A stretch of DNA of 64,000 nucleotides from an uncultured Candidatus Saccharibacteria bacterium. GTDB lineage: Bacteria; Patescibacteriota; Minisyncoccia; Phycocordibacterales; CSBR16-119. Shown here piece by piece: positions 27,477 to 33,029 of this stretch. Position 1 is the first letter of the stretch; each line of letters opens with the position of its first letter. Location of the stretch: NCBI GenBank assembly GCA_964557535.1, contig CAZLAD010000003.1, positions 89,671 through 153,670 of the forward strand, given 5' to 3'. Below the pieces are notes generated by a model. The model did not search any database and was not told the origin of the DNA. It saw only the letters and a program-made list of their open reading frames with translations. Position numbers and translations under genes: made by a program.

Positions 27477-29162
27477 GTGGAAATAAAGGAAATTATCAGG
27501 GGCCTTATAAAAGAGGCACTAGAGAAATTAAATATAAGCGTTGACGGTGTTGGGATAGACCATCCGGCGGAGGTTTCGCACGGTGATTATTCGACAAATG
27601 TCGCTTTTGCTTTGGCAAAAGCGACGAAGTCCAATCCGGTTGCACTTGCTGAAAGTATTGCTGTGGAAATTCCAAAGCATGAAATGGTTGCCAGTGTTAC
27701 GGTTGCGGCTGGTTTTATAAACTTTCACTTAGCGCCAAAATTTTTCCAATTGGAAATTGGAAAAATTTTGGCGCAAACTTATGAGTTCGGTCGTTCCAGT
27801 GTCCACGCTGGCAAACACATTCTCGTCGAACATTCCTCACCAAATCTTTTCAAACCATTTCATGTTGGCCATGTCATGAACAATGCAATAGGCGAGTCTG
27901 TTGCACGACTCGCCGAAGCTTCCGGCGCCAAGGTCACCAAAATGTCATATCCATCTGATGTGTCTCTTGGTATTGGCAAATCCGTCTGGGCGTTACTCGA
28001 GCATGGGGTAGCAGAACTTGAGTCTCTGCCAACGCTCGGTGAAAAATTGAAATTCTTGGGAAATTGCTATGTAGAGGGAACAAAAGCCTATGAAGAAAAT
28101 CCTAGTCTCATGCGCCGAGTTAAAGAGATCACCGAAATGATTTATGAAAAGACTCCTGGTGTCGAATATGATGCTTATCTATTGGGTAAAGATATAAGTC
28201 TCGGATATTTCCTCGATATCACCAAAAGACTCGGATCAGAATTTGATGACTTCATTTACGAATCAGAGGCGGGAGAAATTGGTAAAAAACTGGTTTTGGA
28301 AAATATTGGGAAAATTTTTGAAGAATCAGAAAGTGCCGTCGTTTACAAAGGTGAGAAAGACGGTCTGCATACGCGCGTATTTATCAATGCCGAAGGGTAT
28401 CCGACATATGAAGCCAAAGATATCGGACTTTTGTGGATGAAGTTCGAACGCAACAATCCAGATGTTTCGATATTGGTTACTGATAATCATCAGGCGTCAA
28501 CATTCGAAGTTGTTTTGAAGGCCTCTGAGGGTATCAATCCTGTTTGGTCAGAAAAAACTATTCACAAAACCCACGGTCGCATGAGCTTCAAAGGCAAGAA
28601 AATGTCGAGTCGACTTGGTGGGGTGCCAACAGCCGTAGAAGTTTTGGATACCGTACTTGAAGAAGTGGCTGAGCGCGCCAAGGAAGGCGCAGACGATGCT
28701 GACGCAGTTGCAATCGGCGCACTCAAATTTACAATCCTCCGTACCATGGCGGGCAAGGACATCAACTTTGATCCAGAAACATCGCTATCATTTGAAGGAG
28801 ACTCCGGACCGTACCTGCAATACACAAATGCGCGCATCAATTCTGTTTTAGAGAAAGCTTCTGCCGTCGGTCTTGTGCCAAAGTCTGAAAAAGAAATGGA
28901 AGATTTGCCAAACGATGTCGAGAAATTGGTTGCGAGATTTCCCGAAGTTGTTGAACTCGCTATCAGCGAATGGGCACCGCATCACATTACGACTTATCTT
29001 TTACAACTCGCGCGCGCGTTTAACTCTTGGTACGGTAATACGAAACTTATAGACGAGGAAAATAAAAACACGCCGTATAACTTGGCACTCGCCAAATCTG
29101 TCGGCATCGTCATCCAAAACGGCTTGCAACTTCTGGGTATAAAATCTCCAGAGCGAATGTAA
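27477..29162 (+). CDS. argS: Arginyl-tRNA synthetase (GTG start per ORF track)
   Basis: HSSPNLFKPFHVGH; KMS-like GKKMSSRLG. Confidence 0.85.
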   Translation: MEIKEIIRGLIKEALEKLNISVDGVGIDHPAEVSHGDYSTNVAFALAKATKSNPVALAESIAVEIPKHEMVASVTVAAGFINFHLAPKFFQLEIGKILAQTYEFGRSSVHAGKHILVEHSSPNLFKPFHVGHVMNNAIGESVARLAEASGAKVTKMSYPSDVSLGIGKSVWALLEHGVAELESLPTLGEKLKFLGNCYVEGTKAYEENPSLMRRVKEITEMIYEKTPGVEYDAYLLGKDISLGYFLDITKRLGSEFDDFIYESEAGEIGKKLVLENIGKIFEESESAVVYKGEKDGLHTRVFINAEGYPTYEAKDIGLLWMKFERNNPDVSILVTDNHQASTFEVVLKASEGINPVWSEKTIHKTHGRMSFKGKKMSSRLGGVPTAVEVLDTVLEEVAERAKEGADDADAVAIGALKFTILRTMAGKDINFDPETSLSFEGDSGPYLQYTNARINSVLEKASAVGLVPKSEKEMEDLPNDVEKLVARFPEVVELAISEWAPHHITTYLLQLARAFNSWYGNTKLIDEENKNTPYNLALAKSVGIVIQNGLQLLGIKSPERM

Positions 29163-29163
29163 A

Positions 29164-29297
29164 CCCGCACACCAATATTTTTTATCGCTTTTTGTTGTGC
29201 TAAAAAGTTATCAAATCAAATCAGGCTTGGTAATAATTTACAATATTACTTGGTCTATTTTTGAAAAAGCACAATAATAAAAATATTGGTGTGTGGG
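29164..29297. repeat. Family B palindromic element, copy B2 (cccgcacaccaatattttttatcgctttttgttgtgc ... gcacaataataaaaatattggtgtgtggg)
   Basis: Starts directly after the argS stop; core tggtaataattt..cttggtctatttttgaaaaagc shared with B1. Confidence 0.6.
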
Positions 29298-29639
29298 TAA
29301 AAGCAGCGAAGACCGATCGTATGATCGGCCTTCATGCTCGTAGCATTTGACGTGCAACATGTCGCACGTCTTTCGTTGCTGGTCTTTTTCTGTACCTCTT
29401 CCAGAACATGTAGCAGAAGAGCAGCAGGTTCTTGCGAACATATCGCTTCTTTTGCCCAAGTCTCTTGAAGGTCATGCCGGTCAGGTGCAGGTCGATGATT
29501 TGTCGTATCTTACGACGAACCATCATCTTTTGGACGGTTCGTAGTAATTTCACGTCAGTTGCGTTTGCTCACTTTATAACCCAAAATTTACAATTTTACA
29601 AACTTTTTCAAAGACCTTTTTTATGCTAAATTCAAGGGT

Positions 29640-32600
29640 ATGGAAAAAGATGTAGAAGCTCCGAAAAAGTCTGACGCCGCTTTGAAAGAAGAGGCGGTTC
29701 TTAAATTCTGGACGGAAAATAAAATTTTTGAGAAAACTTTGGAAAAGGAGGCTCCCATGGGCGAATTCGTTTTCTTCGAAGGTCCGCCGACAGCGAACGC
29801 GAAGCCCGCACTTCACCACCTCGAAGCTCGTGCATTCAAAGACGTTATTCCTCGTTACAAAACGATGCAGGGATATCGTGTACCGCGTCGCGGAGGATGG
29901 GATACGCACGGGCTACCAGTAGAACTTCAAATCGAGAAAAAGCTCGGACTTAACTCCAAAAAAGCTATCGAAGAATACGGCATCGAGAAATTTAACGCCG
30001 AGTGTAAGCAAAGTGTTTTTGAATATATCAAAGATTGGGAAGATTTTACTGACCGAATTGGTTATTGGGTAGACAAGAAAAATGCCTACTTCACTTTCAA
30101 CAATTCCTATATCGAATCGCTTTGGAATGTTCTCGCCGAAGTTGAGAAAAAAGATTTGCTCTACAAAGATTATCGAATCGTGCCATGGTGTTCACGTTGC
30201 GGAACACCACTCGCGTCGCACGAACTTGCGCAAGGTTATGAAGACGTAAAAGATCTTTCGATTTTTGTGAAGTTCCCGATCAAAGGATTCGACAAGGCTT
30301 ATTTTGTGGCTTGGACGACAACGCCGTGGACATTGCCAGGCAATGTCGCGCTCGCTGTTGGCAAAGACATCATTTATGTCGAGGCAAAAGTTGGCGAAGA
30401 AATTCTCGTCGTTGCCAAAGAACGTCTTTCCGTCATCACTGCACCCTATGAAATAGTCGCTGAACACAAAGGATCGGAAATGGTCGGTATGGAATACGCA
30501 CCTTTGTATGATTTCATCAAACCAAACGACAAATCTCACAAAGTTTATGCGGCGGATTTTGTCACAACCGAAGACGGAACGGGAATCGTTCACATCGCGC
30601 CGATGTATGGCCAAGATGACTTTGAGCTTGGTACGAAGGCCGGACTTCCAAAAGAGCATGTCGTCGGACTCGACGGTAAATTTTTGCTAGACACAGGATT
30701 TTTCTCTGGCCGATTTGCGATGGAAAAAGACGAAACAGGCAAACCAACGCTTGCCATCGACGTAATTCGCGATCTGCAGGAACGTGGACTTTTCTTCGAT
30801 AAGAAAAATTACGAACACACATATCCGCACTGCTGGCGCTGTAAAACTCCGCTCATCTACTACGCGCGCGATTCTTGGTACATCAAGATGGAATCTTTGC
30901 GCGATGAGTTGGTACGAGAAAACGAGAAAATAAATTGGGAGCCGGATCACATCAAAGAGGGCCGATTTGGCGAATGGCTAAAAAATATTCGCGATTGGGC
31001 GATCTCGCGCGAGCGATATTGGGGCACGCCACTTCCGATTTGGATGGCGGAGGATGGCGAGAGAATCGTGGTTGATTCGATTGAAACACTCAAAAAATAT
31101 ACGAAAAAATCCGGAAATAAATATTTTGTGATAAGACACGGTCAAGGAGAGCAAAATGTCATTGATGTCAGGTCTTCAAATCCAGACGCACCATATCATC
31201 TAACGGAGAAAGGGAGAGAAGAAGTTCATGCTTCAGCTCTTGAATTAAAAGGAAAAGGAATTACGAAAATTATTTGTTCACCATTTATTCGCACTAAGGA
31301 AACTGCAGAAATTATTGCAGAAGTTTTGGGATTTGCTAAAGAAAATATTGTTATTGAATCTCGAATTCGCGAATATGAACACGGGATTTTTGACGGAAAG
31401 ACCAGTAAAGAGTTTAACGATTGGCGCAACAGTGTAAATGCCAGTTTTGATACGGAAGTTCCTGGCGGAGAAAGTTTGAAGGAAGCAAAGATTCGCTTTG
31501 CTGGTTTCTTCTATGATTTGGAAAAGAACTACGCGAACGAAAATATTCTTATTGTTTCTCATGGGGTTTGTCACGAAGTAATGTCGTCGATTGTTGAAGG
31601 TTGGAGTGATAAAGAAACTTGGGACAATTGGAAGGAAAAAATTGTTTGGACGGGTGGCTGGAAACAATACGATTTTATCCCTCTTCCACACAATCAAAAT
31701 TTCGAACTCGATTTGCACCGCCCATTTATCGATGACGTTGTTTTGGAGCGTGATGGCAAAACTTTCCGACGTGTCAAAGAAGTCATGGACGTATGGTTTG
31801 ATTCTGGCGCCATGCCATTTGCCCAGGTTCACTATCCATTCGAAGGACAGAAGGGAGGCTTGTTTAAGAAAGATAAATTGCCATTCCCGGCTGACTTTAT
31901 CTCCGAAGCTGTCGATCAAACTCGCGGATGGTTCTATACGCTTCATGCCGTGGGTGTCCTCATGGGTCGCGGGCGGGCGTACAAAAACTGCATCTGTCTT
32001 GGGCACATTCTCGATGCACAGGGTAAGAAAATGTCTAAGTCTATCGGCAATATCGTGAATCCTTGGGAAATGATGGACAAATATGGCGTCGATACTTTGC
32101 GTCTCTGGATGTATTCGGTGAATCAGCCGGGTGATTCTAAAAACTTTGATGAGAAAACTGTCGCCGAACTTCGAAACAAAGTTTTTAATTTGTTCTACAA
32201 CGTTCTCGCATTTTACGAACTTTATCGCGATGAAAGTTTAGAAACCCACTTGGGGGTCCAACCCCCAAGTGGTAACGTTCTCGATATTTGGATCTTGGCG
32301 CGATTTAACGAACTTGCAAATTCTATGACTGAAAGTTTGGATAATTACAAACTCTTGGAGCCAGTTCGCGCACTCCGAGATTTTATCGATGACCTCTCGA
32401 CTTGGTATTTGCGACGCTCACGCGATCGACTCAAGGACGGTGATGCGGAGGCAAAGCAGACTTTGTATTACGTTCTCAAAAATACGGCCAAGCTCATGGC
32501 CCCGTTCGCGCCATTCGCGGCCGAAGACATTTGGCAGAAATTGAAAACGGCGGACGACGTCGAAAGTATTCACTTGGCAGATTGGCCGAAAGCAGGGAAA

Positions 32601-33029
32601 GTTGATGAAAAGGTTTTGAATGAAATGGAAACGGTACGTAATCTTTGTACGAGCGGAAATATGATTCGCAAGGAAATTGCAATTCCGATCAAACAACCGC
32701 TTGCGACATTTTTCGTGCCAAATGTTTTGGATAGCTATGTCGACATCATCAAAGAAGAATTGAACGTCAAAGAAGTAAAACAGGGAAGTGAAATAGCTTT
32801 CGACAAAACTATTACTCCAGAACTAAAACGCGAAGGAGATTTCCGAGAATTCTTGCGAAGCGTTCAGGGCTTGCGTAAAGACTCTAATCTTTTGCCGAAC
32901 GAACTCGTGACACTCGTCGTACCAGCATCAAACAAAGAATTGATTGTCGGATTCGAAGAAGAACTTAAAAAGACGGCCGGATTGAAAGAAATTAAATTTG
33001 AAGGAGAAGAAATTAAAATAGAAAAATAA
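29640..33029 (+). CDS. ileS: Isoleucyl-tRNA synthetase with an in-frame ~190-aa histidine-phosphatase (PGAM-like) domain inserted (~31105-31690) between the WAISRERYWGTPLPIW segment and the DVWFDSG/KMSKS region
   Basis: IleRS motifs PPTANAKPALHH (degenerate HIGH), WAISRERYWGTPLPIW, GKKMSKSIGN; insert contains RHGQGEQN, CSPFIRTKETA and IVSHGV. Confidence 0.8.
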   Translation: MEKDVEAPKKSDAALKEEAVLKFWTENKIFEKTLEKEAPMGEFVFFEGPPTANAKPALHHLEARAFKDVIPRYKTMQGYRVPRRGGWDTHGLPVELQIEKKLGLNSKKAIEEYGIEKFNAECKQSVFEYIKDWEDFTDRIGYWVDKKNAYFTFNNSYIESLWNVLAEVEKKDLLYKDYRIVPWCSRCGTPLASHELAQGYEDVKDLSIFVKFPIKGFDKAYFVAWTTTPWTLPGNVALAVGKDIIYVEAKVGEEILVVAKERLSVITAPYEIVAEHKGSEMVGMEYAPLYDFIKPNDKSHKVYAADFVTTEDGTGIVHIAPMYGQDDFELGTKAGLPKEHVVGLDGKFLLDTGFFSGRFAMEKDETGKPTLAIDVIRDLQERGLFFDKKNYEHTYPHCWRCKTPLIYYARDSWYIKMESLRDELVRENEKINWEPDHIKEGRFGEWLKNIRDWAISRERYWGTPLPIWMAEDGERIVVDSIETLKKYTKKSGNKYFVIRHGQGEQNVIDVRSSNPDAPYHLTEKGREEVHASALELKGKGITKIICSPFIRTKETAEIIAEVLGFAKENIVIESRIREYEHGIFDGKTSKEFNDWRNSVNASFDTEVPGGESLKEAKIRFAGFFYDLEKNYANENILIVSHGVCHEVMSSIVEGWSDKETWDNWKEKIVWTGGWKQYDFIPLPHNQNFELDLHRPFIDDVVLERDGKTFRRVKEVMDVWFDSGAMPFAQVHYPFEGQKGGLFKKDKLPFPADFISEAVDQTRGWFYTLHAVGVLMGRGRAYKNCICLGHILDAQGKKMSKSIGNIVNPWEMMDKYGVDTLRLWMYSVNQPGDSKNFDEKTVAELRNKVFNLFYNVLAFYELYRDESLETHLGVQPPSGNVLDIWILARFNELANSMTESLDNYKLLEPVRALRDFIDDLSTWYLRRSRDRLKDGDAEAKQTLYYVLKNTAKLMAPFAPFAAEDIWQKLKTADDVESIHLADWPKAGKVDEKVLNEMETVRNLCTSGNMIRKEIAIPIKQPLATFFVPNVLDSYVDIIKEELNVKEVKQGSEIAFDKTITPELKREGDFREFLRSVQGLRKDSNLLPNELVTLVVPASNKELIVGFEEELKKTAGLKEIKFEGEEIKIEK

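Follow-up and report, generated by a model that had tools for sequence, protein, structure and literature searches.

Why should an enzyme that charges tRNA with isoleucine carry a phosphatase in its midst? The question is raised by the gene ileS in a 64,000-nt stretch of contig CAZLAD010000003.1 (hereafter the window), assembled from an uncultured Candidatus Saccharibacteria bacterium. An earlier note, made from the sequence alone, read the gene as an isoleucyl-tRNA synthetase (IleRS) with an inserted histidine phosphatase domain, and the open reading frame (ORF; 29640..33029, + strand) and every motif quoted there are found where that note had placed them. We propose that ileS would encode a working type-2 IleRS with a nested branch-1 histidine phosphatase, and that the two activities may form a conserved two-enzyme module in Paceibacteria, a reading to which we assign a probability of roughly 0.6. 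Aligned sequences and gene orders speak directly for the nested architecture and how widely it occurs, for catalytic residues that do not vary, for intact active and editing sites of the IleRS and for a gene-neighbour/fusion (‘Rosetta stone’) relation between the two enzymes. What appears to be new is the nested architecture and its linkage to ileS; the sequences themselves are already public, and an exact look-up of the window protein in databases returned no record. Architecture and linkage are solid and would moderately surprise a specialist in aminoacyl-tRNA synthetases (aaRSs). These are textbook conserved modular enzymes, and to our knowledge unrelated catalytic domains nested in the bacterial ones are very rare. 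No description of an IleRS with a nested histidine phosphatase, or of a stand-alone form overlapping ileS, was found in searches of the IleRS and aaRS literature or in AARS Online, in keeping with the earlier statement that this is not textbook IleRS architecture.

A phosphatase domain nested in a type-2 isoleucyl-tRNA synthetase

In the window protein Pfam splits the tRNA-synt_1 domain in two around a match to His_Phos_1, and also reports Anticodon_1 and DUF5915. The His_Phos_1 match (PF00300, residues 496-662, E=4.5e-29) scores 102 bits, well above the gathering threshold of 21.7, and the insert contains the phosphatase motifs RHGQGEQN (499-506), CSPFIRTKETA (546-556) and IVSHGV (638-643). 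A model of the domain by itself has a mean predicted local distance difference test score (pLDDT) of 92.1, and Foldseek pairs it at probability 1.0 with many PF00300 structures, among them PspA (4ij5/4ij6), Rv2419c, CobC and dPGMs, with template-modelling (TM) scores of 0.65-0.78. Profile, fold and a full set of catalytic residues thus bear out the histidine-phosphatase assignment. By sequence the best solved relative is PspA (phmmer E=1.3e-12, ~29% identity), and other close solved structures include glucosyl-3-phosphoglycerate phosphatase and a riboflavin-pathway HFP. The label ‘PGAM-like’ in the earlier note holds at the level of the superfamily and goes no further, as the NCBIfam models for mutases and for specific phosphatases are all far under their cutoffs. 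Phosphoglycerate mutase (dPGM/GpmA/GpmB) was rejected as an identity (dPGM_arch 70 against 225 bits, GpmB 68 against 261, PRK01295 40 against 316), as were PspA (53 against 350), CobC (62.6 against 162.9) and SixA (32 against 74.5). A PspA-like specificity was also set aside: the equivalent of the substrate-binding His85 of PspA, H581 in the window protein, varies across the family.

The residues on which catalysis would depend are a different matter. R499, H500, G501, S547, R551, E578 and H641 are unchanged in all 121 aligned sequences, while identity to the window sequence is 40% for the insert and 70% for the IleRS core. Such drift around a conserved active site is what one would expect if the surface of an enzyme were free to change, and we interpret the insert as a phosphatase under catalytic constraint that is probably active.

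The point of insertion can be placed to within a few residues. Alignment to Priestia megaterium IleRS2 (PmIleRS2; 8c8w/8c8u) pairs query residues 13-488 with chain residues 10-478 and query residues 686-1048 with chain residues 482-849, so that residues 489-685, flanked by clean pairing on both sides, represent an insertion of ~197 residues replacing ~3. Identical boundaries are given by alignment to the Minisyncoccales IleRS. The stretch from WG.P.P.W to D.WF.SG measures 248 aa in the window protein against ~55 aa in insert-less IleRS2. The insert is not a normal IleRS subdomain. Ahead of it lies WAISRERYWGTPLPIW (residues 453-468, nt 30996-31043), and past it D691, H693, P695 and D698 are invariant or nearly so. 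A CxxC...CxxC pattern is kept around the site in more distant insert-bearing relatives, one of which (P0012) has WECSGCEE...FKCEKCG flanking its insert, and in the insert-less Minisyncoccales IleRS. Since the CxxC halves stand on both sides in these relatives, the phosphatase splits a zinc knuckle in two, whose cysteines, to judge from the alignments, the clade of the window has since lost. The HUP catalytic core of PmIleRS2 comprises residues 40-168 and 513-632. Chain residues 479-481 lie outside it, in a connective-peptide (CP) region that is named CP2 in the PmIleRS2 paper and CP3 in yeast IleRS nomenclature, and the insertion loop is ~110 core residues ahead of KMSKS. The phosphatase is therefore not built into the catalytic core, as had been supposed, but into a zinc-knuckle loop at the surface of the connective-peptide region.

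Is the host still a synthetase? Despite the insert, the whole protein passes the NCBIfam equivalog TIGR00392 (ileS) with 885.2 bits against a cutoff of 621.4. Its best sequence matches in the PDB are PmIleRS2 and TtIleRS (E ~1e-231 to 1e-235), with IleRS1 at 1e-100 or weaker. An AlphaFold2 (AF2) model of the whole protein is confident (pLDDT 90.2, predicted TM score 0.83, insert blocks 92-98), and Foldseek again places IleRS2 ahead of IleRS1 (best match PmIleRS2 8c9d/8c8v, TM(target) 0.80; TtIleRS TM 0.91). With these structures nearest and a DUF5915 C-terminus in place of the IleRS1 zinc-binding domain, the protein falls among the type-2 enzymes. The structures of isolated IleRS editing domains (1wk8/1wny/1udz) match residues 199-397, where WTTTPWTLPGN and GTGIVHIAPMYGQDD are present. 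The HIGH signature reads ALHH, which the earlier note had called degenerate. That description does not stand: the position is A/G-L/I-H-H in 121/121 aligned family members, and G/AXHH is a published non-canonical IleRS2 signature, the IleRS2 of Deinococcus radiodurans being naturally ALHH and fully active with a normal kcat/KM (PMC10485003). In annotation, ALHH in these proteins is not to be taken as lost function. The same D. radiodurans enzyme is hyper-resistant to mupirocin, with a Ki of 6.6 mM (PMC10485003). Hyper-resistance would be predicted for the ALHH enzyme of the window as well. The NCBIfam exception models for MupA and MupB fail on the window protein (781 and 759 bits against a cutoff of 1900), which on these scores is related to MupA/MupB as an IleRS2 without being a MupA/MupB allele. 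Taken together, the TIGR00392 score, KMSKS, the editing motifs, the anticodon domain, the IleRS2 C-terminus, the ALHH variant and the superposition of the model make the host IleRS look fully functional and editing-competent.

Breadth, age and forms of the association

IleRS domains and PF00300 occur together in every one of the 120 best database relatives (58-98% identity, 1091-1306 aa). A scan of GTDB species representatives gave 377 candidates in total, and we examined the loci of the best 80. Every one of these covers the full insert at the same site, at 38-54% identity, and in 71 of the 80 the ORF is uninterrupted over at least 1050 aa; 8 others end at contig edges. Names carried by the records in the scan include Nomurabacteria, Zambryskibacteria, Kaiserbacteria, Lloydbacteria, Vogelbacteria, Paceibacterota and Minisyncoccia. 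On the 120 best relatives and the best 80 of 377 GTDB loci, the insert is lineage-specific, being restricted to the Paceibacteria/Minisyncoccia of the Candidate Phyla Radiation (CPR). Alignment across this breadth indicates that the nested architecture is common to hundreds of related species and ancient. Many of the genomes with a Paceibacteria-type IleRS (L003-L082) are titled ‘uncultured Candidatus Saccharibacteria bacterium’ (TPA), and one ‘Bacillota bacterium’; these titles look generic or wrong. Several public records of the proteins are named merely ‘class I tRNA ligase family protein’ or ‘histidine phosphatase family protein’.

The same counts bear on the suspicion that the gene is an assembly chimera or a frameshift artefact. 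Nothing in the window favours it, and what can be said for it comes from elsewhere: some short database ‘proteins’ with the domain are frameshift fragments of ileS from error-prone long-read contigs. Against it stand a single intact ORF here and in 71/80 independent genomes, and full length and the same architecture in 120/120 best relatives. We discount a chimera almost completely.

Is the domain also found in other hosts? A search with the insert alone against 1.84 billion cluster representatives (50%-identity clusters) gave 33 matches at E<=1e-30 and 842 at E<=1e-10. Among the nearest 144 new representatives, 88 have IleRS flanks and the remaining 56 are all <=387 aa; no other large host architecture occurs among the 144, their proteins of >400 aa being IleRS without exception. 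P0039 and P0101 (on long contigs), P0250 and P0289, considered as free-standing donors, turned out to be pieces of ileS cut by a frameshift or an edge.

The closest family that truly stands alone consists of P0285 and >270 relatives of ~198 aa, with 36% identity to the insert over 185 aa, and is found in Paceibacterota, Minisyncoccales and Candidatus Microsyncoccus archaeolyticus. In four of six lineages examined the stand-alone gene lies directly 5' of an insert-less ileS (934-963 aa), and its stop overlaps the ileS start by ATGA (4 nt) or by 8 nt. These four lineages share ~62-71% identity with the reference P0285, and their synteny is that of the window: downstream come a CLIPPER-like protein and a class II aaRS, and in three of them argS is found within the upstream flank. 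In Minisyncoccales the phosphatase gene is placed between argS and ileS. In two Minisyncoccales-type lineages (L090:5001-5597 and L091:5001-5597) the stand-alone phosphatase is found upstream of the CLIPPER-like gene, and ileS is not adjacent. Some Minisyncoccales contigs have defence-like genes directly on the upstream side: PycTM and AGS_C with Peptidase_S24 5' of a phosphatase-ileS pair (L089:1254-4546), and NERD, MazG-like, SLFN-like helicase and DUF3800 genes 5' of a stand-alone phosphatase (L091:86-4354). They are probably a variable island adjoining the conserved block.

Nesting is not confined to one loop. Site A, the loop used in the window, holds ~9/10 of the mapped occurrences (46 unambiguous and ~40 at the 488/686 boundary). 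A phosphatase is present only at site B (~window residues 862-879, the start of the anticodon-binding domain) in P0362, which has a normal zinc knuckle at site A. Sites A and B are both occupied in P0357 and in P0266, a cluster of six members on independent contigs up to 1 Mb. P0292 has a second copy at site C (~window residues 738-751, between HYPFE and PADFI), P0318 a tandem pair at site A, and P0242 four copies in one IleRS. The copies share no more than 30-37% mutual identity, and nearly all keep RH[G/A/T]. In P0220 a complete IleRS-phosphatase is followed by a C-terminal HDIG phosphohydrolase domain. P0356 has, besides IleRS and phosphatase, a GNAT domain at the C-terminus and, lodged in the CP1 region, an IS200-like Y1 transposase domain; known from a single 11-kb contig, it may be an artefact or a pseudogene.

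Could the domain instead be a pseudo-enzyme, inactive but with a structural or regulatory role, or a recent insertion, neutral or selfish, that its base composition gives away? The insert is indeed more AT-rich than the flanking ileS, as had been noticed (GC 0.377 and third-position GC 0.294, against 0.450 and 0.469 for the rest of the gene). It is the lowest-GC part of the gene, and only 7% of same-size windows within the 64 kb are as GC-poor. It also evolves fast: between the window and a locus whose ileS is 81% identical (L093), which is saturated at synonymous sites, the nonsynonymous divergence dN is 0.48 for the insert and 0.086 for the core, ~5x faster at the protein level. Yet low GC recurs in 61 of 74 related loci, and the domain is common to at least 80 species representatives at 38-54% identity, hence ancient, with catalytic residues invariant in 121 sequences. 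As the insert predates the divergence of hundreds of species, the AT bias is a property of a faster-evolving domain and not of a recent acquisition, and the suggestion that it marks a separate insertion event is not sustained. We consider a pseudo-enzyme or recent insertion very improbable. A 98%-identical relative (L092) presents a mosaic of its own: between 29660 and ~31650 its DNA matches the window at 100% identity, and from there to the gene end the two diverge by 3-15% per 150 nt. Recombination between strains is suggested, and its breakpoint lies close to where the insert ends on the 3' side, possibly by coincidence.

Possible roles of the phosphatase

What might a phosphatase do for isoleucine charging? 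The proposed module would exist in three forms: a separate gene of ~198 aa whose stop overlaps the ileS start, in Minisyncoccales; a domain nested at the zinc-knuckle loop, in the window clade and most others; and, less often, a domain at some other loop or in two to four copies. Histidine phosphatases hydrolyse phosphomonoesters via a phospho-His intermediate. By analogy with the superfamily the domain would do so via phospho-His500, with R499, R551 and H641 holding the phosphate and E578 acting as acid/base. In the models strand 1 (E494-499) is reached from the IleRS body and has RHG at its C-terminal end, so the pocket should face away from the attachment point; on fold topology the active site probably does so. 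Removal of phosphate from the substrate may matter for isoleucine charging. As substrate, a small molecule or nucleotide bearing a phosphate is possible, though short of an even chance; a blocked (2'/3'-phosphorylated or pyrophosphorylated) acceptor end of tRNAIle and a phosphoprotein, for example IleRS itself or a translation factor, seem improbable in equal measure. That there is no mechanistic link past co-expression would be unlikely, and a non-catalytic domain would be surprising indeed. The earlier suggestion of action on (mis)aminoacyl-adenylates finds no support, an acyl-adenylate not being a phosphomonoester.

Several observations weigh against a dedicated partnership of the two enzymes. 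In two of six lineages (L090, L091) the stand-alone gene keeps its syntenic place without an adjacent ileS, so the phosphatase can persist without tight linkage. Sites A, B and C are geometrically different loops, which argues against one fixed spatial relation to the aminoacylation site. Nested and free-standing phosphatases are both acidic (mean isoelectric point ~5.7, net charge ~-6) and give no support for direct RNA binding. All three points, and the small-molecule phosphatases found as nearest solved structures (PspA, glucosyl-3-phosphoglycerate phosphatase, CobC, the riboflavin-pathway HFP), would suit a moonlighting domain: a metabolic enzyme of the usual kind (a phosphoserine, phosphosugar or alpha-ribazole phosphatase) riding an essential, steadily expressed gene in a streamlined genome, with no link to tRNAIle charging. 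Such an enzyme would have had to settle, among the >400-aa proteins of the nearest 144 cluster representatives, in IleRS and nowhere else, and to do so repeatedly, in several loops and up to four copies. The stop/start overlap with ileS, conserved in four lineages ~62-71% identical to P0285, and the scores far under cutoff of all specific-enzyme NCBIfam models also speak against moonlighting, and we think it unlikely, though a serious rival. A functional partnership of IleRS and phosphatase is favoured by the exclusive link of the domain to one synthetase, by translational coupling and by nesting that has occurred repeatedly.

The tethered phosphatase might strip a 2'/3'-phosphate or a 3'-pyrophosphate from A76 of tRNAIle, countering damage or toxSAS-type toxins. 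A precedent is provided by tRNA-specific pyrophosphorylation of the 3'-CCA end, which prevents aminoacylation and is well established among toxins and in defence (bioRxiv 10.1101/2021.04.30.441581; PMC11559606). The exclusive association with one synthetase and the HDIG phosphohydrolase domain added in P0220 would fit. However, the domain is acidic, site B at the start of the anticodon-binding domain is far from the acceptor end in sequence terms, and a PADLOC scan of the insert, the stand-alone protein and the whole protein gave zero matches. We also know of no histidine phosphatase that acts on RNA 3' ends, and unblocking of the tRNA end appears improbable. A substrate on the host protein would explain why tethering at various loops works. 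SixA, PGAM5, Sts and TFIIIC tau55 are small branch-1 members that are protein phosphatases, and there exist toxin kinases that phosphorylate aaRSs near KMSKS; the nested domain could then act on IleRS itself (e.g. on serines of the KMSKS loop) or on a translation factor, reversing a regulatory or HipA/HipT-like toxin-kinase phosphorylation. Here the SixA model falls short (32 bits against a cutoff of 74.5) and no kinase partner is evident in the window or in the loci examined, and this role seems distinctly improbable. A dedicated end-unblocking or anti-toxin step at tRNAIle, whether by removal of an acceptor-end (pyro)phosphate or by reversal of IleRS phosphorylation just before charging, is doubtful. 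If it were true, a function in repair or counter-defence would have been built firmly into one aaRS throughout a bacterial class, as a translationally coupled gene first and a nested domain later.

For the two-enzyme module that we prefer, the implications are wider than the choice of substrate. The nested phosphatase is fixed across a large part of the CPR, and a coupled neighbour gene in sister lineages, with repeated insertion and amplification in one host, suggests that IleRS and phosphatase cooperate. If this is true, isoleucine charging in these organisms, which have minimal genomes and depend on hosts, may involve a phosphorylation-dependent step, or face such a threat, that has gone unrecognised. 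Should the coupling hold, the pair would also be a natural case study of a partner enzyme passing from operon neighbour to nested domain.

Gene neighbourhood and comparison with known systems

The features of the locus are collected in Table 1. In the window Pfam identifies argS on the 5' side of ileS and, on the 3' side, an EamA-family gene on the minus strand, recO and a DUF11/CLIPPER-like protein. The argS-ileS spacer (477 nt, 29163-29639) corresponds to the place where three of the four Minisyncoccales lineages with an adjoining ileS have the stand-alone phosphatase gene. No remnant of such a gene was found in the spacer or in the rest of the window. The spacer holds a minus-strand ORF for a basic protein of 73 aa (29332-29553) with no NCBIfam match, and promoter- and terminator-like matches in it are weak only. 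Scans for tRNAs and Rfam families in the window and the spacer gave nothing meaningful, the spacer having no Rfam family. In L093 a cyclodipeptide synthase gene (Pfam CDPS) begins 2 nt past the ileS stop and is followed by a methyltransferase gene (L093:6395-7658); the minus-strand EamA gene takes the counterpart position in the window. Cyclodipeptide synthases take aminoacyl-tRNAs as substrates.

Table 1. Features of the ileS locus in the window, with residue numbers of the window protein
Feature	Residues	Position (nt)	Strand	Basis
argS, conserved upstream neighbour		27477..29162	+	Pfam; synteny in L002, L083-L088, L093
ileS, type-2 isoleucyl-tRNA synthetase with nested histidine phosphatase domain, 1129 aa		29640..33029	+	ORF (ATG start), TIGR00392, Pfam, AF2, Foldseek
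ALHH, non-canonical G/AXHH form of the class I HIGH signature	57-60	29808..29819	+	motif; relatives; PMC10485003
CP1 editing domain, motifs WTTTPWTLPGN and GTGIVHIAP	~199-397	30234..30830	+	translation; PDB 1wk8/1wny/1udz
WAISRERYWGTPLPIW motif and first half of former zinc knuckle (MAEDGERIVVDSIETLKKYT), cysteines lost		30996..31103	+	motif search; alignments
Nested branch-1 histidine phosphatase domain, 197 aa	489-685	31104..31694	+	Pfam PF00300; alignments to 8c8w and Minisyncoccales IleRS; model; Foldseek
RHG motif; H500 predicted phospho-accepting nucleophile	R499-H500-G501	31134..31142	+	invariant 121/121; role from superfamily knowledge
SPxxR motif, phosphate pocket	R551	31290..31292	+	invariant 121/121
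Predicted general acid/base	E578	31371..31373	+	invariant 121/121
IVSHG motif, second catalytic histidine	H641	31560..31562	+	invariant 121/121
Return into IleRS: LDLHRPFIDD, second half of former zinc knuckle, DVWFDSG	717-723 (DVWFDSG)	31695..31808	+	motif search; alignments
KMSKS loop	797-801	32028..32042	+	invariant 121/121
Anticodon-binding helical domain (Pfam Anticodon_1)	882-1022	32283..32705	+	Pfam
IleRS2-type C-terminal domain (DUF5915)	1051-1111	32790..32972	+	Pfam

How does the protein compare with systems already known? To the bacterial G/AXHH IleRS2 enzymes (the ALHH enzyme of D. radiodurans, that of Streptomyces griseus, and P. megaterium 8c8u/8c8v/8c8w) it is alike in family and fold (E ~1e-233; TM 0.80), in the ALHH motif, KMSKS and CP1 editing domain, and in an IleRS2-type C-terminus without the IleRS1 zinc-binding domain. 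None of these has a domain in the CP2/CP3 zinc-knuckle loop, whereas the window protein has 197 residues there replacing ~3. A curated precedent for an IleRS with an unrelated catalytic domain is NCBIfam NF040702 (ileS_w_GNAT, ‘isoleucine--tRNA ligase, N-acetyltransferase domain-containing’), but there the accessory domain is a GNAT in place of a histidine phosphatase; with 326 bits the window protein stays under the cutoff of 1999, and Pfam reports no GNAT domain in it. On the side of the phosphatase, PspA of Hydrogenobacter thermophilus (4ij5/4ij6), Rv2419c GpgP and CobC are the closest solved relatives and share fold and catalytic residues with the insert. They are free-standing enzymes, in contrast to the nested domain, which is under the cutoffs of the PspA and CobC models. 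The joining of a nucleic-acid enzyme to a CobC-like histidine phosphatase has a parallel in the RNase H/acid phosphatase of the Mycobacterium tuberculosis Rv2228c type (NF005567), which is the best-scoring NCBIfam phosphatase model for the insert even though its 72 bits are far below the cutoff of 326; that fusion is terminal and has another partner enzyme, while the domain described here is nested in IleRS. The closest non-embedded homologue is the stand-alone phosphatase of Minisyncoccales (e.g. Candidatus Microsyncoccus archaeolyticus), which has a similar YF..RHG N-terminus and the same genomic neighbourhood. Its C-end G-E-x-R-x-h matches the NAE(V/I)RE(L/I) of the nested family, where the window protein has GGWKQYDF. 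It is a separate polypeptide, and in the IleRS that goes with it the zinc knuckle is intact, the motif HYGH is canonical and the loop reads KLSKK.

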